Below, one piece after another: positions 10,835 through 36,556 of a DNA stretch of 64,000 nt (the first letter of the stretch is position 1; every line of letters starts with the position of its first letter). The position numbers were made by a program, and so were the translations under genes. A model generated the notes under the pieces. That model worked only from the letters and a program-made list of their open reading frames with translations. It did not search any database and was not told the origin of the DNA. Origin of the DNA: Deinococcales bacterium (GTDB lineage Bacteria; Deinococcota; Deinococci; Deinococcales; JAAFIG01); the NCBI GenBank assembly GCA_013298185.1, contig JAAFJQ010000002.1:9591-73590 (forward strand). Reading direction: 5' to 3'.

Positions 10835-10835
10835 A

Positions 10836-11824: not shown

Positions 11825-12003
11825 AGTATTTAGGGTTTAAAAATTCATTCGTATTTTTTTAAGGTAAGACATTTTCAGTGTTTTTTTAGACTCCTTTGCA
11901 AGATAGCTGGCGAATGCTCGAGCTGAACAAAGTTTAGTCTTTGGTTTTGTTTCTGTCAAGTTTTAGTTGTTTTTTTGTTGTGAAAAGGTTTATTGAAAGA
12001 TAT

Positions 12004-12279: not shown

Positions 12280-12340
12280 GATGATTCCTCCGAGATAAAC
12301 ACCAACGACGGCAAAATTGCAGCCACACTGACGGCTTGAT

Positions 12341-14671: not shown

Positions 14672-14684
14672 AAGGCTCCTTGAT

Positions 14685-14740
14685 CTCGAGATAAATAATG
14701 CTAGCACTATTTATCTCGAGATTGGGTGCAAAAATCACAT
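14685..14740 (-). promoter_or_regulatory. Promoter/operator module A: 36-bp palindrome CTCGAGATAAATAATGCTAGCACTATTTATCTCGAG plus GTGCAAAAATCACAT box
   Basis: Palindrome 14685-14720 (one mismatched pair). Core TAATGCTAGCACTA 14696-14709. Box 14726-14740, upstream relative to the minus-strand GGDEF-EAL gene. Shared with modules B, D and E. Confidence 0.6.
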
Positions 14741-17034
14741 CAAGGCAGGGTCCCGCTGTAGAGCTTGGTTTCATCGCGGTAACTGGGCAGGTTTCTGTAC
14801 CAGTCTTTGGACTGAACACCACTGCTTTGCGACCAAGGGTCAAATTGTAAATAACCATTGCGAATATCTTCGCCCAGACTGACCCAACCACTGGGTTGAT
14901 TGAGGTGTTCTTTGAGGTGTGCAAAACGAGTTGGCATATTCAGCGCCCAAGGGCGATTATTGCTGTCTTTGTAATACCTGCCTTGGGAGGGGTTGCTGGT
15001 ATCGTCTTGTGTGCCAAATAGACTCTGGTTGGCTTTGCTGGTCGGGGCAAACCCGGGTAAGTGGACTTCAATATCCCGAATTCTGCTGATCATAAATTGG
15101 TCATTGACGAAACTCACAGGGTTGACAATGATAAATGGGTTGTAAGGGACACTCTCGATGGCGCTCAGGGCAACAGGGTTGGTTAAATTGATGGTCACAC
15201 GGACTTTACCGGGGGTCTTGACGGGTTCATCGTCTGCGACATTGCTGTAAAATGGGCGATTGACCAACGAGGGCGGGGTAACGTCATAGCCATCTTCAAA
15301 GACAACAATGGTGGCTTTTTGATGACCGGATTCCAGACCGTTGGCAGCGTACTGAATTGTGCCATAACGCGGTGGTGTTCCAGCTTGTTGTACACCTGAT
15401 TTTTCCCATTGGTAACTGACCGAAGCCACTTGACTGGGCAACAAATTGGTCTGAAAGGCAAAGCCATTGTGGTAGCCACCGCCCAAGGCTTTGACCGTAT
15501 ACTCACCGACAATTTGCACCAGTTGGTTGCTGGCATTGGTGACATGGGTGATGTTGTAATCAATCACCATGTCGTTAAAGTCATAATCGCCGCGTGTGGG
15601 CCAGAGGTCTTCAAACAGCAATGTACCGTAATCGTTTTTGGCAGGAAAGTAACTGTTAAGGGCTTTGCTTGGATCGTTGGGATAATCATCGAATGCGTCA
15701 CTGATACCATCCCCGTCGGAATCGGCGGCTTGCGGGTTGTTGACAGGCGAAAGTGCCACGTTACGCACCACATCGGTGTTCTGGGGGTCTCTGACGGCTA
15801 CGGTGCTGGCAACCGCCGAGGGTGGATTGGCTTGAATCAGTAAAATCGCATCGTTGAAGTCTTGGTCACCGCCTTGGTAGCGTAAAATATCTTCGATTCC
15901 AAGTAGCATACTTTTTTTACCTTCAGCATCGGTGTTGTTGTCGAGTAGCACCGTCTGAGCACTTTTTTCTACGGTCATACCTGCGTTACTTTGGTAAAGT
16001 TGATAGTTGATGGCTTGATCAGAAAAAACGGTTTGTTGTGGTGAGCGTTCGACCACGCTTGTGCCATTCCAACCATTGGCAACCAAAAACCAACCAATGC
16101 CTGTGCCTGCGGGGAAGGTGTCGCTCCATTGTTGGGCGGTGGGTTGTGTGGGGTCGTAATACCGCAGTTGGACTCGCTTACCAGTGCTGAGTCCTCCGCC
16201 TGCATTGGTAAATGAAGCATTTGGGTATGCAATCACCATGCGGTTTTTAATGTCATGGACACTGCTTGGCGGGTTGGCAGCATCGTATAAGTAATAACCC
16301 ACCGAGTTTCGATAACCCGCCCCTTCGTGAATGAAGGTCATCCAGACTTGACCACTTTGCTCCATCACAAGGTTGCTGGCTGCACCTCGAGCAATGTAGT
16401 TTTTAAGTTTGGGGTTATCGGGCAGGGCAATGCCTTCTGGCAAACTGGCGTTGATGGTTTGTAGGGTACTCGAGTTGATGGTTTGGTCGCCATAAAAGTA
16501 ATTGGGTAGACCGGCGTTGGTTCCACTGCTAAAACCACCTAAGTAATTCAGGACTGTGCCACTTGGTAGGTATTGGGGTTTAAGATTGGCTTTAGGGGTT
16601 TGGTTGGCGGTTGTCAGTAGGTTAATTTGCTGGTCGTTGAGTGACAGGCTGACTTTATTGCTGCGAATTGGAATTTCGATCAATTCACTGGTTAAACCAA
16701 TGTAATTGACTTTGACATAGATTTTGTTCAGGTCGGCTGGGATGACCAGTTTCTGGGTGTACAGTCCAGTTGAGTTGGTTAGCCCTCGCAAAACTTCTTT
16801 TTCACCAACTTCTTGGGTGCTGTTGCCTAAATCAATGGCTTTTTTGCTTTGGTAGACAACAAATGGGGCTGCTTTGGCGGGTGCGCCTGCGGCTTTGGCA
16901 CTGATTTGCAAATCCACTTGTTGTGTGGTTGCGTAGTTAAATGCCACGCTTTGTGGTGGGGGGCTTTGGGTTTGCTGACATGCAATTAAACCCATGGTTG
17001 AGGTCAGTGCTGAAAACACGATTGCTTTTTTCAT
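14740..17034 (-). CDS. LruC-domain (DUF4842) surface lipoprotein with a DUF4114-like region
   Basis: 764 aa. Lipobox MKKAIVFSALTSTMGLIAC. WMTFIHEGAGYRNSVGYYLY. DSDGDGISDAFDDYPNDP followed by FEDLWPTRGDYDFNDMVIDY. Confidence 0.75.
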   Translation of the reverse strand: MKKAIVFSALTSTMGLIACQQTQSPPPQSVAFNYATTQQVDLQISAKAAGAPAKAAPFVVYQSKKAIDLGNSTQEVGEKEVLRGLTNSTGLYTQKLVIPADLNKIYVKVNYIGLTSELIEIPIRSNKVSLSLNDQQINLLTTANQTPKANLKPQYLPSGTVLNYLGGFSSGTNAGLPNYFYGDQTINSSTLQTINASLPEGIALPDNPKLKNYIARGAASNLVMEQSGQVWMTFIHEGAGYRNSVGYYLYDAANPPSSVHDIKNRMVIAYPNASFTNAGGGLSTGKRVQLRYYDPTQPTAQQWSDTFPAGTGIGWFLVANGWNGTSVVERSPQQTVFSDQAINYQLYQSNAGMTVEKSAQTVLLDNNTDAEGKKSMLLGIEDILRYQGGDQDFNDAILLIQANPPSAVASTVAVRDPQNTDVVRNVALSPVNNPQAADSDGDGISDAFDDYPNDPSKALNSYFPAKNDYGTLLFEDLWPTRGDYDFNDMVIDYNITHVTNASNQLVQIVGEYTVKALGGGYHNGFAFQTNLLPSQVASVSYQWEKSGVQQAGTPPRYGTIQYAANGLESGHQKATIVVFEDGYDVTPPSLVNRPFYSNVADDEPVKTPGKVRVTINLTNPVALSAIESVPYNPFIIVNPVSFVNDQFMISRIRDIEVHLPGFAPTSKANQSLFGTQDDTSNPSQGRYYKDSNNRPWALNMPTRFAHLKEHLNQPSGWVSLGEDIRNGYLQFDPWSQSSGVQSKDWYRNLPSYRDETKLYSGTLP

Positions 17035-17116
17035 ATCTTTCTCCTAAGAACTTTCCTAATTTGGTTTTGGTGTGAAAATTGCACACTGTAGAACTTTGAA
17101 ATCAGGTAGTCTTCTA

Positions 17117-17161
17117 TAGTGCTAGCACTTAAGATTCTTGGAAGTTGTGCAAAAATCACAC
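17117..17161. promoter_or_regulatory. Promoter/operator module B: TAGTGCTAGCACTT plus GTGCAAAAATCACAC in the divergent region
   Basis: Core 17117-17130, box 17147-17161. On the minus strand the order is box, 16 nt, core, LruC gene. On the plus strand TATAGT (17115-17120) faces the gene at 17185. Confidence 0.55.
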
Positions 17162-17184
17162 AGGGGATATTTAGACCTCGGTAC

Positions 17185-18291
17185 ATGCCCATTGTTTTGA
17201 TTGGGCTGCTGATTGCGCTCAACACTGGTTTTTACACTTTTTTATCCCCTAATCTAATTCGGGAAGCTGTTGGCAAATTGCCATATTGGGATTTGCTCGA
17301 GCGTCCAGATTTGGAGTGGATCACGGTCAGTGGTCAGCCGAAACTCGAGCAGGGAATTTGGGTCGCAAATCAAAAAACTCAAGCTCAAATGCCTTTGATG
17401 CTTTTACCCAATCAAGCCTACCGCGTCAAAATCCCTATTCGGCTCGAGCCGAACGGTGTGGTTGAAATTTGGTTCAATGTCCAGCAAAAGCACCGATTGC
17501 AATCAAGCCACCTGCTGAAACTCGAGTCCAAGCACCAGCGCTTCTACTTGACGGCATGGGTTTACAACCGCTTAGGGGAGCTTCGGATTCTCGAGTCAGC
17601 CGAAGTGGCGGCACAAAATGCGGTTCTGGAGTTACAGGTCAATACTCGGTATTTTCGGGTTTGGTTTGCTCAGCAATGGCTCTTCACCGCCCCTCTCAGC
17701 TATTTAGGCGGGATTCTTGGTGTGGGATTGGAACGTGCCAGTTTGGAGGAGGTTCTGGTGGTCACTGACCCAACACCCATCCCTTCCAATCAGCCTTGGC
17801 AGCTTGTCTCGCCCATATGGCAAGCCCTTGGTGGGACTTGGCGGATTCAGAACGGAGTTCTCGAGCAGATTGACCCACGGGATTTTGATCAATTACTGGT
17901 CTGGCAAAAACCACTGACCGCGCTGCGCTCAATTGAAGTTGAACTCTCGGGTTTTGGGGCTGGGGTTGTATTTGCTATGCCCAAAGCCAACACGTCTCAA
18001 GGGGGGTACATGGTGCGGTTTTCTGAGGATGGCAAAAACTTATTCTGGGGGCGTTTTGGTCAACAAGGCTTTATTGGAAAAGGCAATCGAAGCATCAACG
18101 CCAAAGCTATTCAAAAGCTGCGGCTCGAGTTTCGGCAAAATCAGTTTGATCTGTACTTGAATCAGCAACGCATTGCCCAAAACATTATCATCAGACAGAA
18201 ACACGGGTTTATGGCATTGACCAGTTCCTTATCGTCGGCTCGATTTTTGCAGCTTCGGGTCAATCAGCAAGCGATAGGTTGGTCAAAATGA
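17185..18291 (+). CDS. Hypothetical membrane-anchored protein
   Basis: The ORF-track start (GTG 17119) lies inside the conserved palindrome. The first ATG, at 17185, gives MPIVLIGLLIALNTGFYTFL (a TM anchor). No recognised motif. Confidence 0.5.
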   Translation: MPIVLIGLLIALNTGFYTFLSPNLIREAVGKLPYWDLLERPDLEWITVSGQPKLEQGIWVANQKTQAQMPLMLLPNQAYRVKIPIRLEPNGVVEIWFNVQQKHRLQSSHLLKLESKHQRFYLTAWVYNRLGELRILESAEVAAQNAVLELQVNTRYFRVWFAQQWLFTAPLSYLGGILGVGLERASLEEVLVVTDPTPIPSNQPWQLVSPIWQALGGTWRIQNGVLEQIDPRDFDQLLVWQKPLTALRSIEVELSGFGAGVVFAMPKANTSQGGYMVRFSEDGKNLFWGRFGQQGFIGKGNRSINAKAIQKLRLEFRQNQFDLYLNQQRIAQNIIIRQKHGFMALTSSLSSARFLQLRVNQQAIGWSK

Positions 18292-19352
18292 AGGTCATTT
18301 CAGCTTTTTGGTTTGTTGTTCTGGTTTTTGTCAGCAGCCGCTGCCTTGTGGGTTTGGCAGCCGTGGTCGGGCAGCATTTTTTGCCATTTCCTGCAACTGA
18401 AGCATTTTACCGAATTCACCCAGAGCTACCACTGCTTGACGCGGCGGCTCGTTGGGACAGTGGCTTTTACCTCGAAATTGCCCAATTTGGCTACCGCATG
18501 AGTCTGGGCGAAATCTCGAGTGTGGCATTTTTTCCGTTGTATTCTTTGCTGATTGCCGTTTTTACACCACTGTTTGGTGAGGCTGTCTTAGCTGGGGTAA
18601 TCATCAGCCACCTGTGTTTTTTAATTGGGCTGGTGTTCCTAGAAAAACTAACCAGACAGGTACTGAACCCATCGGCGGCTCGAGTAGCCGTGATGGCGGT
18701 GGCGTTTTTTCCAACTTCGTTTTTCTTTTCAGCCGTGTACACCGAATCCCTATTTTTTATGCTGACCACCATTTTTTTCTACGCGATTCAAACCAAAAAC
18801 CTGCCATTGGCATCGGTCATGGCTTTACTTGCCAGCAGCACCCGCTTTATTGGCTTACTATTGTGTTTTTTGCTGCTGCTCGAGTTTTGGAAAAACAAAA
18901 AACAATGGCTTTGGGTGTTTGCTTCTGGGCTGGGAACACTGAGCTACATGGGTTTTTTAGCCTATATGTTCCAAGACCCAATTGCTTTTTGGACAGTCCA
19001 ACCTGCCTTTGGACGGCAAGGTTTTGATCCAATAAGTGCCTTGCTGCGCGACCTTGCACCGCTTTTTTTAGGGTACTTTGCTTGGAATGTCATTTTGGAT
19101 CTGAGCGCCTTGGGTTTGGTCATAAGCCAAGTGCCACGCTTGTGGCGCATTCGACCCAGTTACGGTGTGTATGCGCTGCTCAGCTTGTTGATACCACTGA
19201 TGAGCGGTACTGGTAGCTTATCGCGTTATGTGCTGGTGGTTGTGCCATTGCTGGTCTTGGCTTATCGCTTGCCAAGATGGTTGTACTGGTTGTCGGGTGG
19301 TTTCTTGGTGATCTTTACGATGCTGTTTTCAACTTGGACATTTGTTGCTTAA
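18288..19352 (+). CDS. Polytopic GT-C-type membrane glycosyltransferase (PIG-V/mannosyltransferase-like)
   Basis: ATGA overlap with the upstream gene. ~9 hydrophobic segments. AARWDSGFYLEIAQFGY...VAFFPLYSLLI pattern. Confidence 0.55.
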   Translation: MKVISAFWFVVLVFVSSRCLVGLAAVVGQHFLPFPATEAFYRIHPELPLLDAAARWDSGFYLEIAQFGYRMSLGEISSVAFFPLYSLLIAVFTPLFGEAVLAGVIISHLCFLIGLVFLEKLTRQVLNPSAARVAVMAVAFFPTSFFFSAVYTESLFFMLTTIFFYAIQTKNLPLASVMALLASSTRFIGLLLCFLLLLEFWKNKKQWLWVFASGLGTLSYMGFLAYMFQDPIAFWTVQPAFGRQGFDPISALLRDLAPLFLGYFAWNVILDLSALGLVISQVPRLWRIRPSYGVYALLSLLIPLMSGTGSLSRYVLVVVPLLVLAYRLPRWLYWLSGGFLVIFTMLFSTWTFVA

Positions 19353-19362
19353 TAGACTGTAC

Positions 19363-19950
19363 TTAACCAACCAAAACCAGTTTTAATAAATCGGTGATGT
19401 GCTTACCAACAATTGGTTTACACAGAATCAGCACTGGGCATTCTTCAGTACCAAGCAACGGGGTCAGGTCATCTGGAAAACCAGTCAAGGCTGCCACAGG
19501 AAGGCTTGGATAGGTTTGCCTGACTTCTTTGATAAAACCAATCCCATCACGCTTATTTGGCATTCGTACATCGCTGATCACCAAATTGACCGATTCTTTT
19601 TTCAGGATGCTCAGACCCTCGATAGGTGAGGCTGCCTCGAGAACTTCGCAGTCGGCAAGCTCGAGTTCTTCGCGCAGAATTTCTCGGATCATCGGGTCAT
19701 CGTCTGCTATTAGAATGCGTGAACGATAACGAGATCTGACAAATGTGCCACGACCTTGTTCTCGAGAAATTAAGCCTTCGGCTTCGAGAACCGAAAGGGC
19801 ATGACGCACAGTCAGTGGGGCGACTTTGAATTGCAGGGCAATTTCTTTATGTGGTGGTAATTTGAACCCGATGGCTAAACTGCCAGATTTGATCTGACTT
19901 CGTAAGTCACTAACAACTCGCCCTGCTTGTTTGCCTAGTTGATAAATCAT
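19363..19950 (-). CDS. Hybrid regulator: N-terminal GntR-type wHTH + C-terminal receiver (REC) domain
   Basis: LPPHKEIALQFKVAPLTVRHALSVLEAEGLISREQGRGTFV (GntR HTH). Then ILIADDDP...LVISDVRMP...AALTGF...LCKP (REC acidic pocket, Asp, Thr, Lys). Confidence 0.75.
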   Translation of the reverse strand: MIYQLGKQAGRVVSDLRSQIKSGSLAIGFKLPPHKEIALQFKVAPLTVRHALSVLEAEGLISREQGRGTFVRSRYRSRILIADDDPMIREILREELELADCEVLEAASPIEGLSILKKESVNLVISDVRMPNKRDGIGFIKEVRQTYPSLPVAALTGFPDDLTPLLGTEECPVLILCKPIVGKHITDLLKLVLVG

Positions 19951-20213
19951 AATATTTGGCTCATTTCGACCACTGGATTTTACTCTAAAATGTTCGTAAA
20001 TGCCATATCTTCTTAAATTAAAGTAGGTTGCAAAAAATATATGAAAAGAAAAAAAGCCCGATAGGACACAATACTCGGGGTCAAAGAAAAGAGAACGTGT
20101 TTGGTCTCGAGTTCAAAAGTTTTTCAAAAACGTGCGCTGGTTCAGGTTTTTCATGATGATGACTTTCGGGGTTCTGATCACCCATGTCGAAAATGACCAG
20201 CCTCAAAAAAAAA

Positions 20214-20227
20214 TAGTGCTAGCATCA
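20214..20227. promoter_or_regulatory. Solo copy (site C) of the TAGTGCTAGCA palindrome core
   Basis: AAATAGTGCTAGCATCA, located between the GntR-REC gene (minus) and the cohesin/dockerin-alg operon (plus). No adjacent GTGTGA box found. Confidence 0.45.
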
Positions 20228-20370
20228 TTTTAGAAATCTTCAGATTTCCCAAACATTGTTCCTATCTTTTTTGCAAATAAGACCTCAGAAAAGATGGAGT
20301 TCGCGGTGCAGCCAATTGAATCATTGGTTGAGGTCAACAGCCCTATTGTGCTGTACAAAGGAGATTCGTT

Positions 20371-21936
20371 ATGTACAAAATCATATTCACACTTTTCTTG
20401 GCAATGCTCGTCAGTTGCGCCACAACGCCTGCTCCTGCTCCTGCTCCGACCACTGCGCTCAATCCCTTGAAAATCAATATCGAAGCCAGTCAGTCAGCAC
20501 TCGGTTTTAGTGCAGTTGTTCAGTTCGACCCTAAATTGCACCAATTTACAAAACTCGAGAAAGGCAAAGGGGTGCTGGGTGCAGTCAAAGAAACCAGCCC
20601 CGGGCAACTAAAAGTCAGTCTCATCTCGAGTACCTCCATACAGAACACTTGGGGTAGTCTTGAATTCAAAAGTCTTCAAGCAACCAACCAAGCCCCACAA
20701 ATTCAACCCATAGAAATTGTTACACCTGATCGAAAGGTAATCAAGCTAAACAATAACTCACGCCCTCAAGTTGCCGTGCGAACTGCCAAGCATCTAACGT
20801 TTGAGGCTTGGTTTGTGCGGCTACCGTTAGGTGACATTGACCAATCGGGTCATGTGAACATCACTGATGCTATCAACGCACTTTTGATTGATGTTGGAAC
20901 GCTTGTACCCACCAATTTTCAAATCTATATTTCCGATTTATACTCCGATGGCTTAGTGAATCTTGCCGATGCCGTTTGGATTTTGCAAAAAGCGATTAAC
21001 CCAAATTTACCAGCCCAGCCAGTGATTCACCCTGCTTACCATGCTGTTGATCTTGCTGGTGGTGAAGTATGGACGGTTTTAATTGGTAACGCTGGCAATC
21101 TCGCTTTACCTGAAATCAGTTTAACCACCGCCCAAGGTGTGACAACCGAATTGGTATCAGCCAACGCACAACACGCCATGTACCGTTTTACGCTAGACCA
21201 AGCAGCTATTTCAAACCGAATTCTGGTTGAATTTGAAGGTTATTCTCCAATCCCTTTGGTTTACACAATTGTTGATAAAATTGCCCCAGAAATTCAATTT
21301 AACAGTGGTTCGCCTGTCCAGACTGTCAACTCGAGCCGCCAGATCACTTTTGATTTTAGCGTAAGCGATAATCATGAAGTTGAGCAAATATCCATATTTG
21401 ACGGTTCACAATTGCTTCAGAATTTCCCAATCAACACAAGCTACACCTATACATTCAATACAAACCCGCACAACAATGGGGTGCATCCATTTCGTATCCA
21501 AGCTCAAGATAAAGCAGGTAACAAGGCTACTTTACCGCTTCTTATCACTGTGGATATTCAAGCCATCATTGTACACCAAACAAATTGTTATGGTGTGGCG
21601 ATAGGTCAAACTTGTCAGTTGCACGTCCGTAAAACCGGTTCTGGACTTGATTGGAAAGGCTTTGGTTTTGATCTTGACATTCCTGGATTTCAACTGACCA
21701 GTGTGAGCAGCCAAGAAGGTTGCACCACTGATTATGCCACCCTAGCAAGTTATTCATACCGCATCGGCACAATCTGTGATGCGGCTGGTGACAGTAATGC
21801 CGACCTGATGGTACTAAACCTGACCCGCACAACGCTGGGGGAAAGCACGTTTGAAGTACAAAATGCGATTCTGGCAAGTGACACTGTTCCGTCAACTACG
21901 GTCATTGTTGAAGGCGATAGTATGACCATCCAATAA
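20371..21936 (+). CDS. Lipoprotein with cohesin-like and dockerin-like modules and Ig-like repeats
   Basis: Lipobox LAMLVSC. Dockerin-type paired Ca-binding repeats DIDQSGHVNITDAINALL and DLYSDGLVNLADAVWILQ. Confidence 0.55.
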   Translation: MYKIIFTLFLAMLVSCATTPAPAPAPTTALNPLKINIEASQSALGFSAVVQFDPKLHQFTKLEKGKGVLGAVKETSPGQLKVSLISSTSIQNTWGSLEFKSLQATNQAPQIQPIEIVTPDRKVIKLNNNSRPQVAVRTAKHLTFEAWFVRLPLGDIDQSGHVNITDAINALLIDVGTLVPTNFQIYISDLYSDGLVNLADAVWILQKAINPNLPAQPVIHPAYHAVDLAGGEVWTVLIGNAGNLALPEISLTTAQGVTTELVSANAQHAMYRFTLDQAAISNRILVEFEGYSPIPLVYTIVDKIAPEIQFNSGSPVQTVNSSRQITFDFSVSDNHEVEQISIFDGSQLLQNFPINTSYTYTFNTNPHNNGVHPFRIQAQDKAGNKATLPLLITVDIQAIIVHQTNCYGVAIGQTCQLHVRKTGSGLDWKGFGFDLDIPGFQLTSVSSQEGCTTDYATLASYSYRIGTICDAAGDSNADLMVLNLTRTTLGESTFEVQNAILASDTVPSTTVIVEGDSMTIQ

Positions 21937-21948
21937 GCTCAAAGCGAG

Positions 21949-23352: not shown

Positions 23353-23359
23353 GGTGAAG

Positions 23360-24334
23360 ATGAATAAATTTCTGAATTTTGGTTTTGGGCTAACGCTTGT
23401 GATTGGCTTATTTGGATTTTTGGTTGGACAGGATTTCACGAAACATCCTTGGATGGTTCAGACCATCGGTTTTGCCAATGGTTTACGCTACTGGCTTTTA
23501 GCCACTGCTGACGATCAGGTGCATCTGGGTTCTAGTGGCTGGTTATTCTTAAATCAGGAACTGAAACTGCCCGCCGAGCCAATTCGTAACCTCGAGACTC
23601 GTGCCAGCGCGGTGCTGAGTGTGGCTAAGATTTTACAAGCTCGAGGCACAGAACTGATTGTTGTGGTTGTACCTAATAAATCGCGTATTTACCAAGACCA
23701 ACTTGGCTTCGCTTTGCCCAAAATCTTGCAACACGGGTATAGCAGATGGGTGCAAATTCTTGGGGCTAACCAGATCAAAACCGTGCAACTCGAGGTCGTT
23801 TTCTCCAAGGCGGCGCAGCAGCAACAGGTTTTTTTGAAAACCGATACGCATTGGAATACGGCAGGGGCGGCAATTGCCGCTCGAGCGGTAGCTCAGCAAA
23901 TCAAGACAAATAATTTAACTCGAGCCTCTTTTGTGACCCGAAGCCACGCTGCTCAACCATACCTTGGCGATCTGATTCATTTGATGGGTGTGGCGCAGTT
24001 ACCGCCACCTTTTCGCCCCGAGTCCGAGCTTGAAATTTCTACCAGCACCAAAAGTTTGGCGGTTGCCAATCAAGGCTTGTTGGCTGCCCCTCAAAGCCAA
24101 GTGGTGCTGGTTGGAACTTCGTATTCGCTTCGCAGTAACTTTGGGGGTGCGCTCGAGCAGGCGTTGGGTGTGAGGGTGGCAAATCTTGCTCAAGAAGGCT
24201 CTGGCTTTGAGCGGAGCATCAGGACTTTTTTACAAGACCGTGTGCTGCAAGACCACCCACCAAAAATTCTGATTTGGGAATTTGCTGAACGATTCTTGTA
24301 TTTGCCAGTTGAAGATTCGTTGTCGCTACCGTAA
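23360..24334 (+). CDS. algJ: AlgJ/AlgX-type SGNH-like O-acetyltransferase, membrane-anchored
   Basis: Start ATG 23360 (MNKFLNFGFGLTLVIGLFGFLV). GSSGWLFLNQE and TDTHWNTAGA motifs. Confidence 0.7.
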   Translation: MNKFLNFGFGLTLVIGLFGFLVGQDFTKHPWMVQTIGFANGLRYWLLATADDQVHLGSSGWLFLNQELKLPAEPIRNLETRASAVLSVAKILQARGTELIVVVVPNKSRIYQDQLGFALPKILQHGYSRWVQILGANQIKTVQLEVVFSKAAQQQQVFLKTDTHWNTAGAAIAARAVAQQIKTNNLTRASFVTRSHAAQPYLGDLIHLMGVAQLPPPFRPESELEISTSTKSLAVANQGLLAAPQSQVVLVGTSYSLRSNFGGALEQALGVRVANLAQEGSGFERSIRTFLQDRVLQDHPPKILIWEFAERFLYLPVEDSLSLP

Positions 24335-24441
24335 AGAAGAAGATTGGCTATCGTTACCGTAAAGAAGAAGATTGGCTATCGTTACCGTAAAGAAGAAGAT
24401 TGGCTATCGTTACCGTAAAGAAGAAGATTAGCTATCGTGCC
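24311..24441 (+). repeat. 28-bp tandem repeat (GTAAAGAAGAAGATTGGCTATCGTTACC), ~4 copies plus an ancestral partial copy, spanning the algJ stop to the algF RBS
   Basis: Units at 24331-24358, 24359-24386 and 24387-24414 are perfect. 24415-24441 is degenerate. 24311-24330 (the gene's 3' end) resembles the unit's 3' part. Confidence 0.9.
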
Positions 24442-24457
24442 ACAAAGAGGAGGCAAC

Positions 24458-25072
24458 ATGAAACAAATTGTATTGGGTCTGTGCTTGGTTGGTCTGGTTG
24501 CTCAAATCAGCCTCTCGAGTCCGTTGTATGCGCCTGCCCCACCTGCCAATTCAGCTTTTGTACGACTGGTGAGTACCTTGCCACAAACCACAACTTTGAA
24601 TTGGGGTGGTGTGGTGTTGTCGTTAAAGCCGAATCAAGTCAGCCCATACCGAATTTTTAAGCAAGGCAAACACCAATTACAAACGGCTCAAATCAGCCAA
24701 AGTATAGTTCTCGAGGCGGGTTTCTTTTATACAGCGATGTTGTCGGCTCGGGGCTGGTGGTTTAATCAAGACCACAGCAATGCAAGTCTCATCCAAGCCC
24801 GAATTGCGGTTTATAATACCTCGAGCCAAAGTATTCAAGTAAAAACCGCCGATGGTCAGCAGGTGTTGTGGGATCGAGTACAACCACAAAGTTACGTAAT
24901 GCAGCCGGTAAATCCTGTTAAGGTGCGCTTAGCCGTTGGTCTGGGTCAGAAAAACCTGATCTTACCCGAGAGCCAACTCGAGCCGAATAAAGCGTACAGC
25001 ATCTTTGTTTTTGGCAATCAAAAAACCAATCAAGCCATTTGGCTGGAAAACAGCACCGAGGTCAGACCATGA
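24458..25072 (+). CDS. algF: AlgF-like periplasmic acetylation protein
   Basis: Signal peptide. LYAPAPPANSAFVRLVS and VKTADGQQVLWDRVQPQSYVMQPVNPVKVRLAV resemble, from memory, P. aeruginosa AlgF (LYGPQAPKGSSFVRLLN; LKTADGKTEVV...INPVKVSLAL). RBS AGAGGAGG. Confidence 0.7.
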   Translation: MKQIVLGLCLVGLVAQISLSSPLYAPAPPANSAFVRLVSTLPQTTTLNWGGVVLSLKPNQVSPYRIFKQGKHQLQTAQISQSIVLEAGFFYTAMLSARGWWFNQDHSNASLIQARIAVYNTSSQSIQVKTADGQQVLWDRVQPQSYVMQPVNPVKVRLAVGLGQKNLILPESQLEPNKAYSIFVFGNQKTNQAIWLENSTEVRP

Positions 25073-26751
25073 AATCTGTCTTGGTGTTGGTGCTGCTTTG
25101 TGGTTTAGCGGTTGCGACTTCGTTTGGCGAATTTACGCAAACAGGGGTCAGTCAAGGCAAAAATGGTTGGTTGTTTCATATCGCCGAGTTTGGTGCTTAT
25201 CAAAACGAACAACCACAAGACATTGAAGAAAAACTAAACTATATTGCCGCCATAGCTCAGCTTCTGAAAACCCAAGGTACGCAACTTGTGGTCGCGCTTG
25301 TGCCTGCTAAAATTCATTTGTACACCAATCAACTCCCCGATGGTTTGCCGCTGACCAGTACCATCAAAAGTCGGTACGAACGGGCATTGGGGTATTTACA
25401 AAAAGCTGGGGTCACGGCGGTTGACCTCTTGACTCCGATGCGTCAAGGACAACGCCTCCAAGAGGAAACAGTCTATCCGGTCTATCAAAAACTTGATCAC
25501 CACTTCTCGAGTAGAGGGGCGCTGATTGCTGCCAAGGCGGTAGCTGATACGGTGCGGCAGGTGGTGAATTTGGCGCAGTTACCTCGGACACCATTTATCT
25601 TAAAAGCCCAAAGCCAAGAATTTTACGAACAACCCAGCTTACTCGGTCGCTTACCCAAGGTCGAGCAGAACAAATATAAAAAAGAAGCCTTTATTCCCTA
25701 TGAACTGACCCAAACCAGCAATCAGCTTTTGAACAAACCGAGTCCTGCGATGGTTTTGGTTGGTTCATCGGCTTCTAAGGGCGGCAGGTTGTGGCCCTTT
25801 GAATATGGAATTCCGTATTACCTTGGTACGGAAGTTGCCAATGCCGCCCAAATTGGACGCGGACCGTGGTTGCCACTCGAGGAGTATCTGTCTGACCTTA
25901 GTTACCAACAGCAACGTCCAAAAGTAATAATTTGGCAACTCTGGGAGGCATTTTTACTCGATGTTGACCAAGCCGAATTGCCCGAGTATTGGGCAGCTCG
26001 TTTGGGTGCATTGATTGAGGACAAAAGCGGTGGTACGACGTTAAGTGTTGTCAGTCCCACACCAACCAGCCAAGAAATTGCTGTGCCATCAGGGCTGACT
26101 GCCTTGGATTCAATTGTAGTTGAAGTCAGTAGTCAAAAACTCGAGCGTTTGGTGGTCGAATTGGTTGGGGTTGGGCAAGCTCGAAAAGTTATTTTTCGAC
26201 TTGCTGCAAGCAACACCAAACAACGCATCAAAATCCCATTGATGCTCGAGGCGCAAGTGCCAAAGACCATACGTTTACTTGCAGGTGGGCAAAACCTTAA
26301 AGTGCATCGGGCGTATGGGTATGGGCTGCATCCAATCATGGCGGGTTTGCTCGAGCCAAAAGGGCAACAAAATCTTTTGCAGCGCACCAGCCGTGTACAC
26401 CTGACTGGTTTTGCTGAGATTGAAGCCAATGGTGTGCGGTGGGCAGTGGGTCCGGAAACCAGTGTTGGGTTTTTTATCCAGCAAGCCCATCCGATCAGAC
26501 TTGAGCTTGATCTTTACAATCCAATTGCCAACCAAGAAATACGCTGGTATTTCAATGGTCAGTGGCTCGAGACTTGGCAGGCTTTGGCAGCCGGTGAACA
26601 ACGTCAAAGGCAGTGGACACTTCAGCCTGTGCTTGGTAAAAATACCTTAAAGATGATGGTCAAACACCACAATGGTTTTGGTAGTGACTTTGCTCAGGAT
26701 GATCCTCGGCAGCTTTCGGTGATGTTCAATCGTTTTGAAATTGGTTTTTAA
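25069..26751 (+). CDS. AlgX/AlgJ-like SGNH acetyltransferase with a C-terminal beta-rich (carbohydrate-binding-like) domain
   Basis: ATGA overlap with algF. Signal peptide MKSVLVLVLLCGLAVA. GKNGWLFHIAE and LDHHFSSRGA motifs. Confidence 0.65.
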   Translation: MKSVLVLVLLCGLAVATSFGEFTQTGVSQGKNGWLFHIAEFGAYQNEQPQDIEEKLNYIAAIAQLLKTQGTQLVVALVPAKIHLYTNQLPDGLPLTSTIKSRYERALGYLQKAGVTAVDLLTPMRQGQRLQEETVYPVYQKLDHHFSSRGALIAAKAVADTVRQVVNLAQLPRTPFILKAQSQEFYEQPSLLGRLPKVEQNKYKKEAFIPYELTQTSNQLLNKPSPAMVLVGSSASKGGRLWPFEYGIPYYLGTEVANAAQIGRGPWLPLEEYLSDLSYQQQRPKVIIWQLWEAFLLDVDQAELPEYWAARLGALIEDKSGGTTLSVVSPTPTSQEIAVPSGLTALDSIVVEVSSQKLERLVVELVGVGQARKVIFRLAASNTKQRIKIPLMLEAQVPKTIRLLAGGQNLKVHRAYGYGLHPIMAGLLEPKGQQNLLQRTSRVHLTGFAEIEANGVRWAVGPETSVGFFIQQAHPIRLELDLYNPIANQEIRWYFNGQWLETWQALAAGEQRQRQWTLQPVLGKNTLKMMVKHHNGFGSDFAQDDPRQLSVMFNRFEIGF

Positions 26752-26761
26752 GTACCTCCGT

Positions 26762-26794
26762 GAAATGTTTAAGCGTTTTTTGCTTAAACATTTC
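26762..26794. terminator. Perfect 13-bp-stem hairpin GAAATGTTTAAGC-GTTTTTT-GCTTAAACATTTC after the alg module
   Basis: Read directly, 11 nt after the stop at 26751. No downstream T-run, so terminator function is uncertain. Confidence 0.45.
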
Positions 26795-26817
26795 CGACCG
26801 ATGGGAGTAAGGATAGC

Positions 26818-26882
26818 GTATCTACCGCTGTAATGGCAGAATTGCCGCTTTTTGAAAATTCTAAAATGAAAGCGGTAGATAC
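26818..26882 (+). promoter_or_regulatory. Structured leader candidate upstream of the GH-A hydrolase gene
   Basis: Outer 12-bp stem GTATCTACCGCT / AGCGGTAGATAC (26818-26829, 26871-26882). It encloses the hairpin GGCAGAATTGCC + CTTTTT and an alternative AGAATT/AATTCT pairing. Confidence 0.3.
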
Positions 26883-26905
26883 TGAAGTCTTTTGCATGAG
26901 ACAAT

Positions 26906-28438
26906 ATGCCAATGCTCTTTCGTCTGCTTCGTCTTGTGGGTTGGCTGACCCTGCTTGGTTGCCTTGGACTTGGTGTTTGGTTGCTCCTGCCAAGGCTTGA
27001 GCAAGCTGCCCGCCAAGAAGCGGCTCTCTCGGCGCTGAAAACCAAAGAAAAATCGCCAGATGTCTGGCGTTGGAACAACATCAAACCAATGCCGCGTTTA
27101 CTTGAACCGTCGCGGCGTGACCAAATTACAGCAGATTACCAAGCTGCGCTGCGTGAACTGGGTTATGCCAGTCAAAGCGGCGACTCGAGCGGCTTAAGAA
27201 CGTATTTTGAAGCGGCAGCGCTCGAGGATGCGCTTTTAGCTGCTCAGACCAAGCAAAGGCAGAACACTTGGGGTCACGAGTTACAATTGCGTTTCTATGC
27301 TCCTGACGGGGCAACGGTGGCGTTCACCGATTCGGCTTGGCAGGGCTTTATTTGGCAGGACAACTTTGAAGTTCGGTATCAGGTCATGGATGTGGTGATG
27401 AGCCTATCTGATGGTAATTGGCGGGTTTTGCATTGGCGGGTTTTAGAACGAAAAATTCCAGCGCTAACTCGAGCCTCGAGCCTCGGTAGCCAAACCCTGC
27501 AACAATTGCGTGGTGTGAATTATGTCGGACGACTGCACCCATTTAATGATTTTTGGAACAATTGGAACAGCGCCGAAGTTCGCTCGAGTTTTCGTTTAGC
27601 AAAAGCCATGAAGCTAAACACTGTACGCTTTTTTATTCCTTATCCCACGCCAAAAACTGTGTATCAGTACCTACCTGCTTTGCTTGAGATTGCTCGAGAC
27701 GAACAGGTTCAACTGATGCCAACTTTGCTTGATACGTACACCAAATACGCACTCGAGGATATACCAGCCATTTACCAATCTTTTGTACAACTGCTGCCAA
27801 TGCTCAGGCATTCGCAAGTCTTGGCGATTGATCTGAAAAACGAAGCCGAACGCGATGCCGACCAAGCTGGTTGGCACAATATCCGTGGTTTGCTTGGTTT
27901 TTTTGCTGTTTGGCTTGCCGAAAAAACCGCTAAGCCAATCACCGCAGGTTTAAGCGACCCAGACCAAATAGTCTCAAAGTCGCTTGATTTTGTGACCGTG
28001 CATCATTATGGTTCATTGCTCCAACTCGAGACTCGGTTGTTGGCAGCTCAGAAGGTGGGTAAACCTGTGCTGCTGCAAGAATTTGGGTTTCATACCCAAG
28101 TCAATAAGCTACCCGACCCACACACTGAACTCGAGCAAGCCGAGTATATTGCGGGGGTTTTGGCGCTTTGTCAGCGCCTGGGTGTTGGTTGGTTGGTTTG
28201 GAATTTACATGATTTTCGGGCGGGTACGATGCCCAATAACCGTGAAGTTGAGCGGCATTTAGGTTTGGTGCGTGCCGATGGCTCGCTTAAACCAGTCGCC
28301 GAGGTACTGCTTGGTCGAATTGTGACTGGTTCGTGGCAAGATAAACTAAGTAAAGTTCAGGCGCTTTTGAGCTTGTGGTGGCTCGGTGGGTTGTTGCTTA
28401 TTGTTGTTTTGATTTTTCGACACTTTCGGACAGCCTGA
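26906..28438 (+). CDS. Membrane-anchored clan GH-A (GH5/GH39-like, PslG-like) glycoside hydrolase
   Basis: N- and C-terminal TM segments. Acid/base IDLKNEAE and nucleophile LLQEFGF in a (beta/alpha)8-like spacing. Confidence 0.6.
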   Translation: MPMLFRLLRLVGWLTLLGCLGLGVWLLLPRLEQAARQEAALSALKTKEKSPDVWRWNNIKPMPRLLEPSRRDQITADYQAALRELGYASQSGDSSGLRTYFEAAALEDALLAAQTKQRQNTWGHELQLRFYAPDGATVAFTDSAWQGFIWQDNFEVRYQVMDVVMSLSDGNWRVLHWRVLERKIPALTRASSLGSQTLQQLRGVNYVGRLHPFNDFWNNWNSAEVRSSFRLAKAMKLNTVRFFIPYPTPKTVYQYLPALLEIARDEQVQLMPTLLDTYTKYALEDIPAIYQSFVQLLPMLRHSQVLAIDLKNEAERDADQAGWHNIRGLLGFFAVWLAEKTAKPITAGLSDPDQIVSKSLDFVTVHHYGSLLQLETRLLAAQKVGKPVLLQEFGFHTQVNKLPDPHTELEQAEYIAGVLALCQRLGVGWLVWNLHDFRAGTMPNNREVERHLGLVRADGSLKPVAEVLLGRIVTGSWQDKLSKVQALLSLWWLGGLLLIVVLIFRHFRTA

Positions 28439-28441
28439 TTT

Positions 28442-28469
28442 GGGTGTGATTTTGGTCACACCCGTTTTT
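28442..28469 (+). terminator. Intrinsic terminator GGGTGTGA-TTTTGG-TCACACCC-GTTTTT
   Basis: 8-bp stem starting 4 nt after the stop at 28438, followed by a T-run. The stem contains a perfect TGTGA-N6-TCACA. Confidence 0.65.
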
Positions 28470-28498
28470 CTGGTCGTGGTATGATAGTGCTAGCACTT
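28444..28498 (+). promoter_or_regulatory. Promoter/operator module D: GTGTGATTTTGGTCACAC plus TAGTGCTAGCACTT
   Basis: Box 28444-28461, core 28485-28498, 25-nt spacer. GATAGT is a possible -10. Precedes the PAS-GAF-HD-GYP gene. Confidence 0.5.
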
Positions 28499-28543
28499 TA
28501 AGTTTTGGACAAGCCTGAATATCCACAGGCTCTTTGAAAATCC

Positions 28544-31345
28544 ATGAACAGGCTTTCTGTTCTGCTTAAACACAGAATCCACAAACCACGCAAATACCTG
28601 CTACTCGGAGAATTTATGATTGACTTTAGAAATCCACTGCCTCAAAACAAGGGTTCGACTGGTATCCTGACTTTGTTTTCGACCCACAGCCAAGAAAAAA
28701 AGCAGACGAATACACAGCCAGCGTTCAACCATGTCCTCGAGGGATTGCTGGGCGCTCTGCACACCAATGCGGCTGTTTTGGACATGAGCGGTACTGTTTT
28801 AGCTACGAACTTGGCTTGGCAAAGATTTAGCAACCTTGGACGCAATTCGATGTGTGTGGTGAGCCAAAATTACTTTACTTACTTAAAAATCTGCTCGAGT
28901 GACCACCCATTAACCTCAGTGGAATTTGCCAATGCTTTGCGAAGTATTATCCAACAACAAACCCAGATGACAACCATTGAACTTGTTCATCGGGCGGCAC
29001 TGGTTCGGATTCACTTAAAAAAAGTAGATCTGCTCGAGCAGCCATGTGTTTTGGTTCAATTTGAGCAAATTGCCTTACCAGTTTTGCCACAAAGTAAAGA
29101 CCTCGAGTCATTGCTTGAACATTTGCCTGATATGGTTGCCCGCTTTGATGATCAATGTCGCTTTTTGTACATCACCACCAATTTTGAGCAGTGGAGCGGC
29201 TTAAATCATACTTTGCTCATTGGTCAGACCATGCAGCAGGCGGGTTTGTCCGAAGAACTGTGCCAACTCTGGAATTGGATGGTGCTTGAAGTCTTTGCAA
29301 GTGGTTTAAGCAAAACGATTGAATTTGAATTTCTAGGCAGCCCCTATGAGGCTTGCTTTGTACCAGAATTCAATCAATCGCAAAGCGTACAAAGCGTGCT
29401 TGTTTGTACCCGAGGCGTGACCAAGCAACTGCCCCAAACCATTGACCACGCTCGAGAACGCCGTTTCCGCGCCATGATCGAACACAGTGCCGAAGCAATC
29501 ACCTTACTGAGTGGTAAAGGGAAAGTGATTTATGGCAGTCCTTCAACCGAAGAAATCCTTGGACTGCCACTCGAGCAGTTTTTAGGATCGTCTTGCTTGG
29601 CATTTATTCACCCTGACGACCAGCCACAAGCCCAGACTGCTTTTCGTAAAGCCCTGTTAAACCCGCGTTTAGGTATCACCACCGAAGTTCGTTTTTGTCA
29701 TGGCGACGGCGCTTGGATTTGGCTGGCTGGGACATTCACCAATTTGCTTCATGATCCTGATGTTGGGGCAGTTATTGCCAATTACCGCGATGTCAGCCAT
29801 AAGCATGTCCAAGCTGCCGATCTGAAAGCCCGAGAAGAGCATTACCGTTTTCAAGCTGCCTTTGACCAATCGCCAACTGGAATTGCTATTCTTGGACTAG
29901 ATGGTTCATGGAAGCGAATCAATCAGGCTTTTGCAGCCATGTTGGGTTACTCGGTTGAAGAATTAAAGAATTTAACCATTGCAGCAATCTCGCACCCAGA
30001 TGAACACCAAGCTGACCTTGAACGTGGATTAGAATTGACCATCACAGGGCAACTGCATTACGAGAAGCGCTTTGTTCACAAAAATACTTCGGTGGTTTGG
30101 GCAAGGGTTCATTTTTCATTGGTGATTGATGGGGCTAACCATTACATCCTCAAGCAAATTGAGAACATCACCGAAGAAAAGCGCTTTCAGACTGAGGTAC
30201 AACAATTAAATTTTCAACTCGAGAAACGTCTAGCACGACTGAGTGCTTTGCGTGAAATTGATACAGCCCTGGTCTCGAGCCTTGATTTATCATTGACTTT
30301 AGGGTTAATTCTCGATCAAATCTGTAAACAACTTGGGGTTCAAGCAGCTAACGTGATGCTTTACTACCCTGAGTCATTGAGTTTACGTTTTTACATTGGG
30401 CGAGGTTTTCGCACCTCCAGTGTCAGAAACTCTTGGGTACGACTTGGCACGCCACTTGGTGGCTTGGTTGGTTTGGACCGAATGACCATGGTGATTCCCA
30501 ATGTTTTTGTGCGTAAGGATTTAATTGGCAGTTACATGGAATTTTTACAAAACGAAGGCATTCAATCTTTTGTTGGCTTACCGCTTTTAGCCAAAGGTGA
30601 GTTGCTTGGTGTGATTGAAATTTATCACCACACTGCCCTCGAGCCAGACCATGAAATGCTCGAGTACCTTGAATTACTGGCAGGTCAGGCAGCTTTGGCG
30701 ATTGAAAACACCAAAGTGCTTCGAGCCTTGCAGTATTCCAATACCGAATTGGCAATGGCGTATGACGAAACCATCGAAGGTTGGTCTCGAGCGCTTGATT
30801 TACGCGACAAAGAAACCGAAGGACACAGCCGTCGGGTCACAGAAATGACGGTGCGTTTGGCTCGAGCCATGAATATCAATGAAGGCGAAATCATTCAGAT
30901 TCGACGCGGGGCGCTGCTGCACGACATTGGCAAAATGGGAGTCCCAGACGAAATTCTGCTGAAGCCCGGTAAACTGACCGATGATGAATGGGTGATGATG
31001 AAAAAGCATCCTGACTATGCCCATGAATTGCTAGCACCCATTGGATTTTTAGGAGCTGCTTTGGATATTCCATATGCCCACCATGAAAAATGGGACGGCA
31101 CAGGTTATCCGCGTGGTCTTCACGGAGAGCGAATCCCATTGGCTGCCAGAATTTTTGCAGTGGTTGATGTCTGGGATGCCCTAAAATCAGACCGCCCGTA
31201 CCGCTCTGGCTGGACAACTGAGCGGGTCATTGAACACATTGCACAGTCTTCTGGTACGCATTTTGACCCTCGAGTGGTGACAAATTTTCTTGCCTTATTA
31301 AAGCAAGATCAAACCTTGTTATGCGATGAACCCGAGGTCAAATAA
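28544..31345 (+). CDS. PAS-PAS-GAF-HD-GYP c-di-GMP phosphodiesterase (start may be ATG 28616)
   Basis: Multiple PAS-like segments and a GAF region. HD-GYP motifs HDIGKMGVP and HHEKWDGTGYPRGL. Confidence 0.85.
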   Translation: MNRLSVLLKHRIHKPRKYLLLGEFMIDFRNPLPQNKGSTGILTLFSTHSQEKKQTNTQPAFNHVLEGLLGALHTNAAVLDMSGTVLATNLAWQRFSNLGRNSMCVVSQNYFTYLKICSSDHPLTSVEFANALRSIIQQQTQMTTIELVHRAALVRIHLKKVDLLEQPCVLVQFEQIALPVLPQSKDLESLLEHLPDMVARFDDQCRFLYITTNFEQWSGLNHTLLIGQTMQQAGLSEELCQLWNWMVLEVFASGLSKTIEFEFLGSPYEACFVPEFNQSQSVQSVLVCTRGVTKQLPQTIDHARERRFRAMIEHSAEAITLLSGKGKVIYGSPSTEEILGLPLEQFLGSSCLAFIHPDDQPQAQTAFRKALLNPRLGITTEVRFCHGDGAWIWLAGTFTNLLHDPDVGAVIANYRDVSHKHVQAADLKAREEHYRFQAAFDQSPTGIAILGLDGSWKRINQAFAAMLGYSVEELKNLTIAAISHPDEHQADLERGLELTITGQLHYEKRFVHKNTSVVWARVHFSLVIDGANHYILKQIENITEEKRFQTEVQQLNFQLEKRLARLSALREIDTALVSSLDLSLTLGLILDQICKQLGVQAANVMLYYPESLSLRFYIGRGFRTSSVRNSWVRLGTPLGGLVGLDRMTMVIPNVFVRKDLIGSYMEFLQNEGIQSFVGLPLLAKGELLGVIEIYHHTALEPDHEMLEYLELLAGQAALAIENTKVLRALQYSNTELAMAYDETIEGWSRALDLRDKETEGHSRRVTEMTVRLARAMNINEGEIIQIRRGALLHDIGKMGVPDEILLKPGKLTDDEWVMMKKHPDYAHELLAPIGFLGAALDIPYAHHEKWDGTGYPRGLHGERIPLAARIFAVVDVWDALKSDRPYRSGWTTERVIEHIAQSSGTHFDPRVVTNFLALLKQDQTLLCDEPEVK

Positions 31346-31370
31346 ACCTTTTGACCCACCAATACCCGCC

Positions 31371-31423
31371 GTGTGATTTTTGCACACCGATTGATTGCTT
31401 ATCCAGATATAGTGCTAGCACAT
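31371..31423 (+). promoter_or_regulatory. Promoter/operator module E: GTGTGATTTTTGCACAC plus TATAGTGCTAGCACAT
   Basis: Box 31371-31387, core 31410-31423, TATAGT 31408-31413. AAGGAG RBS lies before ATG 31440. Confidence 0.55.
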
Positions 31424-31439
31424 ACCAAAAGGAGTGACC

Positions 31440-32066: not shown

Positions 32067-32096
32067 AGCCATTACGCTCCGAACGATAAGGACACC

Positions 32097-35164: not shown

Positions 35165-35165
35165 G

Positions 35166-36547: not shown

Positions 36548-36556
36548 AGGACTGTT

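Follow-up and report, generated by a model that had tools for sequence, protein, structure and literature searches.

How are the genes of a cluster for cyclic diguanylate (c-di-GMP) and exopolysaccharides brought under common control in an uncultured lineage of Deinococcales? The question is raised by a 64-kb stretch of contig JAAFJQ010000002.1 (here, the window), which carries such a cluster of about 25 kb. An earlier reading of this DNA without database searches (here, the sequence-only reading) noticed five intergenic palindromes, four of them with a second conserved block upstream, and proposed that they belong to one regulon. Our analysis shows that this two-block module, for which no earlier description was found, is real and conserved; literature matches for GTGCTAGCAC and TGTGATTTTTG themselves were limited to primers and unrelated hits. 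On balance, we lean toward the view that the palindrome may be a cluster-specific repressor operator for a response regulator that combines GntR and receiver (REC) domains (GntR-REC), and that the second block (here, the box) may be an upstream activator site at the same promoters.

The palindromes stand out by their number, score, and location. The 10-mer ATAGTGCTAGCAY is common to all five sites (14698-14707 on the minus strand and plus-strand starts at 17119, 20216, 28487, and 31412), and a search of the window for the 12-mer TAGTGCTAGCAC with up to two mismatches gave 15 strand-hits (3.6 expected), a number reached in none of 100 shuffles. With a weight matrix built from the sites of the clade, the five sites score 21.8 to 26.4 bits, and no other position in the window exceeds 10.4 bits. 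All five are noncoding, though noncoding DNA makes up just 7.3% of the window, and together they span one 17-kb cluster. GCTAGC occurs six times in the window, at these five sites and once within a coding sequence at 31030, which bears out the earlier description of five intergenic palindromes and a single further copy. The palindrome is about 18 bp long (WWWWR-TGCT·AGCA-YWWWW), and its information profile is symmetric across 20 bp, with a GT-GCTAGC-AC core and A/T-rich flanks. Twofold symmetry, GT-Nx-AC arms, and an A/T-containing center, which characterize GntR operators, are all found in it; the resemblance to such operators suggested before is thus upheld by the GT-N6-AC arms and the symmetric profile.

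Each palindrome lies upstream of genes that are its predicted targets. Putative operator s1 (AAATAGTGCTAGCATTAT, 14694..14711, minus strand) precedes a GGDEF-EAL gene (13376..14671, minus strand). L006 and L007 have the same sequence here, and L019 departs from it at 1 nt (L numbers are our labels for the related loci compared). Site s1 forms the center of a 36-bp palindrome with CTCGAG flanks (14685-14720), which had been noticed before and is real, with one mismatched pair. Putative operator s2 (TATAGTGCTAGCACTTAA, 17115..17132, plus strand), around which a 25-nt block is invariant across six orthologues, lies in a divergent region between a gene for an LruC-domain protein (DUF4114 and DUF4842; TIGR04456, 228 bits; 14740..17034, minus strand) and the genes for a hypothetical protein (hyp368) and a PMT_2-like glycosyltransferase (17185..19352, plus strand). 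This site had been assigned to the LruC-domain gene, an assignment that we retain; given the divergent arrangement and the two boxes described below, it probably serves the hyp368/PMT2 operon as well. Putative operator s3 (AATAGTGCTAGCATCATT, 20212..20229, plus strand) precedes an operon for a Big-domain protein, MBOAT (AlgI-like), AlgX/J-like, AlgF, and AlgX-like proteins, and hyp510 (20371..28438, plus strand). Putative operator s4 (GATAGTGCTAGCACTTTA, 28483..28500, plus strand) follows a TG-extended -10 element (TGGTATGAT, 28477-28485, plus strand) and precedes a PAS-PAS-GAF-HD-GYP gene (28544..31345, plus strand) with intact HDIGK and HHE..GTGYP motifs. Putative operator s5 (TATAGTGCTAGCACATAC, 31408..31425, plus strand) precedes an operon for a short HD-GYP protein, hyp385, GT2, GT1, STAS, a SpoIIE phosphatase, an RsbW-like kinase, and a REC protein (31440..37268, plus strand). 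Pfam and NCBIfam searches confirmed the gene assignments made before (GGDEF-EAL, LruC domain, two HD-GYP proteins, and AlgI/J/F/X-type acetylation genes). The catalytic motifs are intact, and so are both HD-GYP proteins.

The box has the form TGTGA-N5-KCACA, and a block consisting of TGTGATTTTTG and CACA or ACCA lies beside every palindrome, including the one at 20214. Its promoter-distal half is better conserved than the proximal half, which often reads ACCA or AACA. Of the six boxes in the window, five have half-sites 5 bp apart, as do all orthologues, and the one at 28444 alone has a 6-bp gap; the gap of 6 bp read earlier has to be corrected accordingly at every other box. Box b1 (ATGTGATTTTTGCACCC, 14724..14740, minus strand) lies 29.5 bp from the center of s1 and overlaps the stop codon of the LruC-domain gene; its counterpart in L019, ATGTGGGTTTTGCACAA, keeps the same distance from the palindrome. 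Two boxes accompany s2: b2a (GTGTGATTTTTGCACAA, 17145..17161, minus strand) faces the LruC-domain gene at 29.5 bp, and b2b (GTGTGAAAATTGCACAC, 17070..17086, plus strand), which the sequence-only reading did not include, faces hyp368/PMT2 at 45.5 bp. The orthologues of b2b read TGTGAAAATTTCACA, a perfect 15-bp palindrome, and all of them have a TAGTCT or TACTCT hexamer 29 nt from the box center. The palindrome at 20214 had been taken for a solo site; it is accompanied by a degenerate box, b3 (ATGTCGAAAATGACCAG, 20184..20200, plus strand), 28.5 bp from s3, with counterparts at equal distance in L019 (CTGTGAAAATTGACCAT) and L021 (ATGTAGAAAATGACCAC). Box b4 (GTGTGATTTTGGTCACAC, 28444-28461, plus strand) lies within a hairpin region (28441..28470) placed 3 nt past the hyp510 stop codon and is indeed the TGTGA-N6-TCACA that had been reported. 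Box b5 (GTGTGATTTTTGCACAC, 31371..31387, plus strand) lies 37.5 bp from s5 and is identical in L004, L017, and L019, with a 20-nt spacer that cannot be aligned. Of the three places said to share the box sequence, 31371-31387 is the only one in the window with exact GTGTGATTTTTGCACAC; the copies at 14724-14740 and 17145-17161 differ from it by two bases and one base, respectively.

For a species-level search, the pattern TGTGATTTTK-N14-44-AGTGCTAGCAY was run against 185,579 genomes, one per species, and gave 18 matches. Seven of these lie in four Deinococcales/Deinococcota metagenome-assembled genomes (42 to 45% GC, CTCGAG-rich as in the window), and all seven fall within the syntenic cluster; therefore, the two-block module occurs nowhere else in those genomes. 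L019 keeps all five sites, with proteins 37 to 75% identical to those of the window, and subsets of the sites are kept in L021, L022, and L107. Further related loci were obtained through exact look-ups of GntR-REC homologues; contigs of this kind are carried by the runs SRR9948921-33 and the JGI samples 3300078828/33/34. When the s5 and s2 regions are aligned, the columns without variation are those of the box, the palindrome, and the Shine-Dalgarno sequence, and the spacers are unalignable, a clear phylogenetic footprint. The footprinting for which the sequence-only reading had called thus finds both blocks conserved upstream of orthologous genes. Because orthologous intergenic regions keep the blocks and their spacing while the spacers diverge, the blocks are conserved as motifs and not as duplicated DNA, as had been argued from the window alone.

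The two blocks are set at discrete distances that are conserved at each site. Measured from center to center, they are 29.5 bp apart at s1 and at s2 toward the LruC-domain gene, 28.5 bp at s3, 37.5 bp at s5 and s4, and 45.5 bp at s2 toward hyp368; the window copy of s4, with its N6 box, measures 39.5 bp. The values of 16 nt and 24 to 25 nt given earlier are not retained (the gaps between 17-mer and 12-mer are 14 nt and 22 to 23 nt), and the 8-nt step between the two classes stands. In every spacing class, a -10-like hexamer resembling TAnnnT begins 29 nt from the box center. This hexamer reads TAGCAT/TAGCAC, TATAGT/TAAAGT, or TAGTCT/TACTCT, depending on the class, and TAGCAT/TAGCAC is preceded by TGC and can be read as a TG-extended -10 element. 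A consensus scan found a sigma-70 -35/-10 pair at none of the sites, and the s4 orthologues that lack the distal box half have a TG-extended TATAAT or TATGAT instead. Because the hexamer is fixed at 29 nt from the box center and no -35 hexamer is present, the box would be centered at about -41 from the predicted start and would substitute for the -35 contact, and the palindrome would cover the -10/start region. Its center would then be at roughly -11.5, -3.5, or +4.5, in each case within the region covered by RNA polymerase. The starts predicted in this way are, on the plus strand, near 31420, 28492, and 20232 and, for s2, near 17119 or 17127; on the minus strand they are near 17112 and 14691. 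The earlier prediction of a box about 41 nt upstream of the start, with the palindrome over -10 or start, is supported by the hexamer position in all spacing classes. Two other readings of these promoters were set aside: as a -35 element, the box (TTGCAC/TTGACC) is too far from the -10 hexamer (20 to 22 nt), and for a sigma-54 or other alternative sigma promoter there is no GG-N10-GC, nor is a sigma factor encoded among the 46 window open reading frames (ORFs), out of 55 called, that were scanned with Pfam, despite the presence of the STAS/SpoIIE/RsbW genes.

Which protein might bind the palindrome? A GntR-REC response regulator of 195 amino acids (Pfam GntR, PF00392, 62 bits with a cutoff of 27; Response_reg, 66 bits) is encoded at 19363..19950 on the minus strand. 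It is the sole DNA-binding protein in the conserved cluster, and its gene, in mid-cluster, is kept in L006, L019, L021, L022, and L107. When proteins are clustered at 90% identity, at least 120 clusters show the GntR-REC architecture; no PDB chain matched both domains, and nothing relevant on GntR-type response regulators or this architecture was found in the literature. In 13 homologues with 51 to 100% identity, D83, D84, D85, D127, T156, and K178-P179 of the receiver domain are invariant; with its acidic pocket, phospho-acceptor Asp, Thr, and Lys, the receiver looks functional. The winged helix, in which the G-R-G motif of the wing is conserved, is nearest to those of NagR/YvoA (the closest solved relative), PdhR, and HutC. 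No histidine kinase gene adjoins the regulator gene in the window, where the nearest one encodes a PAS histidine kinase (41443-43098); a histidine kinase gene does adjoin it in L024 (PAS-GAF) and L028 (5xPAS).

The strongest link between regulator and palindrome comes from distant homologues whose own promoters contain the same core, and with them the earlier suggestion that GntR-REC binds the palindrome gains support. A metagenome scan with the GntR-REC alignment yielded true homologues in just 3 of 80 loci (L027, L028, and L052), because the back-translated peptide, REQGRGTFV, is one that all GntR proteins share; the remaining 77 generic GntR loci (529 kb) served as a negative control. In L028, which lies outside the clade (45% identity, 65% GC), TTGACA-17-TAGTCT-GCTAGCAC is found 58 nt upstream of the GntR-REC gene, and two further copies of the core lie between a methyl-accepting chemotaxis protein (MCP) gene and the 5xPAS histidine kinase gene that precedes the regulator. 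In L052, TTGCCG-17-TACTCT-GCTAGCAC is found about 50 nt upstream of the GntR-REC gene. L027 has one copy (TTAGTCTGCTAGCAGATTAG), as does L024 (GTGCTAGCAT, upstream of the PAS-GAF kinase and GntR-REC genes), and in L021 an additional palindrome lies 14 nt upstream of the regulator start codon. Across nine distant GntR-REC loci (119.6 kb; L121 contributed none), the core TGCTAGCA occurs seven times, compared with about 1.3 expected (P = 4e-4); in the 529 kb of control loci it occurs once. Palindrome and GntR-REC are found together at every clade locus that has GntR-REC, and also in L024, L027, L028, and L052. We consider it fairly probable that GntR-REC is the protein that binds the palindrome. 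Two details of these loci may be added. In L028 (9905-9935), the -35 and -10 elements of the GntR-REC promoter enclose a perfect 12-bp palindrome, CAACACGTGTTG, which may be a second operator; a box-like TGCGA-N6-GCACT upstream of the L024 site was judged to be an over-reading.

Several observations weigh against the assignment of these roles. (i) GntR-REC is the sole common neighbor partly by construction, as the loci were retrieved via GntR-REC homology. (ii) The arginines that read guanine in NagR (R38/R48) and FadR (R35/R45) are replaced by K35, which is variable, and P45, with H34, R49, and H50 invariant; because of this replacement, the specificity of GntR-REC is not inferable by homology. 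(iii) TGCTAGCA is absent within 6 to 10 kb of GntR-REC in L025, L118, L026, L116, and L121, and the single copy in L119 lies inside a coding sequence. The recognition helices of motif-bearing and motif-free loci showed no clear difference, apart from a weak hint that R-H goes with GTGC and R-Q/E with CTGC. (iv) The distribution of s3 matches that of the acetylation operon and not that of the regulator gene: the site is found in L019 and L021 and is missing in L022 and L107, where the acetylation operon is also missing and no site lies upstream of GntR-REC. The palindrome at 20214, noted earlier as a neighbor of the GntR-REC gene, goes with the acetylation operon. (v) All boxes that score at least 17.6 bits in about 160 kb sit at discrete distances from a palindrome, and occurrence solely beside palindromes is unexpected for the site of a global activator. 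It leaves room for the same protein, or a cluster-specific partner, as a candidate at the box. (vi) The LruC-facing hexamer, TAGCAC, lacks the conserved final T, and the -41 model is weak there. More generally, the transcription starts, the direction of regulation, and the identity of both binding proteins in this uncultured lineage are predicted from sequence.

Some of these points would fit equally a genuine operator whose binder is encoded elsewhere in the genome, GntR-REC being merely a member of the regulon: about half of the distant GntR-REC loci are without the motif, s3 goes with the acetylation operon, and GntR-REC lacks the hallmark arginines of GntR proteins. We regard this explanation as unlikely, though well within reach, since the 8-bp core lies on the -10/start region of GntR-REC promoters in the unrelated GC-rich loci L028 and L052, which otherwise have no gene in common with the window cluster, and since the control loci contain but one copy. 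For the box, the question is whether it belongs to a familiar family. A canonical CRP/FNR site has a 6-bp spacer (xTGA-N6-TCAx). The TGTGA half-site, the predicted position at about -41 without a -35 hexamer, and the one perfect TGTGA-N6-TCACA would suit a standard CRP/FNR/Clp-family site responsive to cyclic AMP or c-di-GMP, as would the class II action of Deinococcus-Thermus CRP-family activators (PMC8465061). It is nevertheless doubtful that the box is such a site. With a single exception, all copies and orthologues have the N5 spacing, the perfectly palindromic TGTGAAAATTTCACA among them. SdrP, which is from the same phylum and belongs to the CRP family, no longer binds when the spacer is 5 or 7 bp long (PMC8465061). 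The sole N6 copy is itself a terminator-like hairpin, no CRP-family gene is present among the 46 ORFs scanned, and no box was found apart from a palindrome in the 160 kb. Of the class II CRP/FNR geometry proposed in the sequence-only reading, then, the predicted position near -41 is supported, and canonical CRP/FNR identity, which calls for exactly 6 bp, does not.

The N6 copy also bears on whether the blocks act as RNA, the box ending the upstream gene and the 36-bp palindrome forming a hairpin in the 5' untranslated region or between cistrons. In the window, b4 folds into a hairpin (-15.2 kcal/mol, z = -3.8) that has a U-run behind it and a stop codon 3 nt ahead of it. If transcription continued from the LruC-domain gene, the s1 palindrome would pair as a hairpin of 18 bp (-23.7 kcal/mol, z = -8.4), which would end 5 nt short of the Shine-Dalgarno sequence of the GGDEF-EAL gene. 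The copy at 28444 is probably a terminator hairpin. As an account of the module, action as RNA is very improbable: the other boxes (s5, s1, and L019-s4) are unfolded (z > -1), two boxes stand between divergently transcribed genes at s2, orthologous boxes such as GTGTGATTTTTGACCAA, the b4 counterpart in L019, are not self-complementary and cannot form the hairpin, and the 10-bp palindrome has no loop. An intrinsic terminator was accordingly rejected as the identity of the box, since the window s4 copy is alone in having its features, and Rfam gave no match at gathering score in the whole window. Finally, a -10-like hexamer (TATAGT, TAGTCT, or TACTCT) always abuts GCTAGCA, and the palindrome could be a core-promoter signature, i.e., a -10 element with a conserved start region and no dedicated binder. 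We hold this to be extremely improbable. The offset of the best -10 hexamer from the core varies (-2, 0, and +1 nt), the position relative to the box shifts by 8 and 16 nt, and conservation is as strong in the promoter-distal half, GCAY, as in the proximal one; twofold symmetry of this kind points to a dimeric protein and not to a sigma factor. Apart from these considerations, we note that the one difference of L019 in the 36-bp s1 palindrome (14680-14725, minus strand) turns a G-U pair into a G-C pair.

Under the favored view of a repressor operator with an upstream activator site, a GntR-REC dimer on the palindrome would block RNA polymerase and repress the promoter. A histidine kinase would phosphorylate the receiver domain and thereby set operator occupancy. 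A separate, putative activator would bind the box at about -41 and stand in for the -35 contact in a class-II-like manner. A bolder version, which we offer as speculation and consider rather unlikely, takes GntR-REC as an uncharacterized class of response regulators in Deinococcota and in GC-rich relatives labeled Chloroflexota. Its family operator would be the core TGCTAGCA, whose half-sites resemble a -10 element (TAnnsT-GC), and the protein would compete directly with the sigma factor for the -10 element; in the clade it might also occupy the box half-sites (GTGCA/GTGAT, compared with GTGCT) at -41, such that one phosphorylation-controlled protein would switch the whole c-di-GMP and exopolysaccharide cluster between activation and repression.

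If the favored view is correct, a two-component signal would be linked to c-di-GMP turnover (one GGDEF-EAL and two HD-GYP proteins) in uncultured Deinococcales, with exopolysaccharide acetylation, glycosyltransferases, the surface LruC protein, and a partner-switching module as further targets. It also offers a concrete operator sequence and a target set for a regulator family without a characterized member. The design itself, a repressor operator over -10 with an upstream activator site, is conventional; it extends known regulation and overturns nothing. Less is understood of the box, whose 5-bp spacing is atypical and whose coupling to the palindrome is strict.

Other features of the window were noted along the way. 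The partner-switching module (STAS, SpoIIE-type phosphatase, RsbW-like kinase, and a lone REC protein) ends the s5 operon at 35166-37268. The stretch from s3 to the GntR-REC gene contains, at 20050-20160 (minus strand), what we read as a 34-codon ORF (MGDQNPESHHHEKPEPAHVFEKLLNSRPNTFSFL) with a weak hairpin and a T-run after it. CTCGAG, e.g., at 14685-14690 and 14715-14720, occurs 327 times in the 64 kb (7.4 expected; 182, 68, and 56 copies by reading frame and 21 in noncoding DNA), and the next commonest 6-bp palindrome has 36 copies. Related loci and some GC-rich contigs are likewise very rich in it (120 copies in the 20.6 kb of L025), an abundance that resembles the cyanobacterial "highly iterated palindrome" HIP1 and for which no literature was found. 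An AT-rich repeat, TATWWTGATAGCWWT, is present in four copies (1.3 expected) at 56670-56760, 58666-58680, and 59845-59859, in intergenic DNA beside ParA, integrase, and HTH_17 genes; they probably serve as operators or centromere-like sites in a segment of mobile or plasmid-like character, on which ParB is also encoded. A lower-GC defense/toxin-antitoxin island at 2450-12979 encodes a type I restriction-modification system (HsdM and HsdS), AbiEi/AbiEii, RES-Xre, HNH, and a further AbiEi.

How does the module compare with known systems? The palindrome resembles the NagR/DasR dre site, AGTGGTCTAGACCACT (PMC4333415): both are twofold-symmetric elements of 16 to 18 bp with a central CTAG and GT...AC arms, and both overlap the promoter. 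Winged-helix domains bind the dre site as a dimer, as is predicted here for the palindrome. However, GT and AC lie 1 bp farther from the center on each side (GT-N6-AC, compared with GT-N4-AC in dre), and the two guanine-reading arginines are replaced in GntR-REC by K35 and P45. The box is like the activator sites of class II CRP/FNR promoters (Thermus thermophilus SdrP, Deinococcus radiodurans DdrI, and cyanobacterial NtcA) in its predicted position at about -41, where it would replace the missing -35 element, and in its TGTGA half-site and better conserved distal half; it differs in the 5-bp gap, the proximal ACCA/AACA, the lack of a CRP-family gene nearby, and its constant place beside a palindrome. 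It also recalls the Deinococcus RDRM, the 17-bp operator (TTATGT-N5-ACATAA) of the XRE-family repressor DdrO, which controls DNA-repair genes (PMC8533742, PMC6300522). The two elements come from the same phylum and share a length of 17 bp, a 6-N5-6 layout, an A/T-rich center, and a location on or near promoters. Aligned with each other, GTGTGA-TTTTT-GCACAC and TTATGT-N5-ACATAA have T2, T4, and G5 and C13, A14, and A16 in common. We rejected the box as an RDRM: the architecture fits, but three of six positions per half-site agree, and the outer TT/AA of TT(A/C)TG(T/C)-N5-(A/G)C(A/G)TAA are missing.

With regard to the regulator, GntR-REC differs from GntR/HutC-type proteins in that a receiver takes the place of the UTRA or FCD effector-dimerization domain, which would make phosphorylation, and not a small ligand, the signal. 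With its complete catalytic receiver residues and the kinase gene beside it in L024 and L028, it resembles self-repressing response regulators of c-di-GMP and biofilm genes, as it does in the operator predicted on its own promoter in L021, L028, and L052. Unlike response regulators of the OmpR, NarL, NtrC, and LytTR classes, it has its DNA-binding domain, of the GntR type, at the N terminus.

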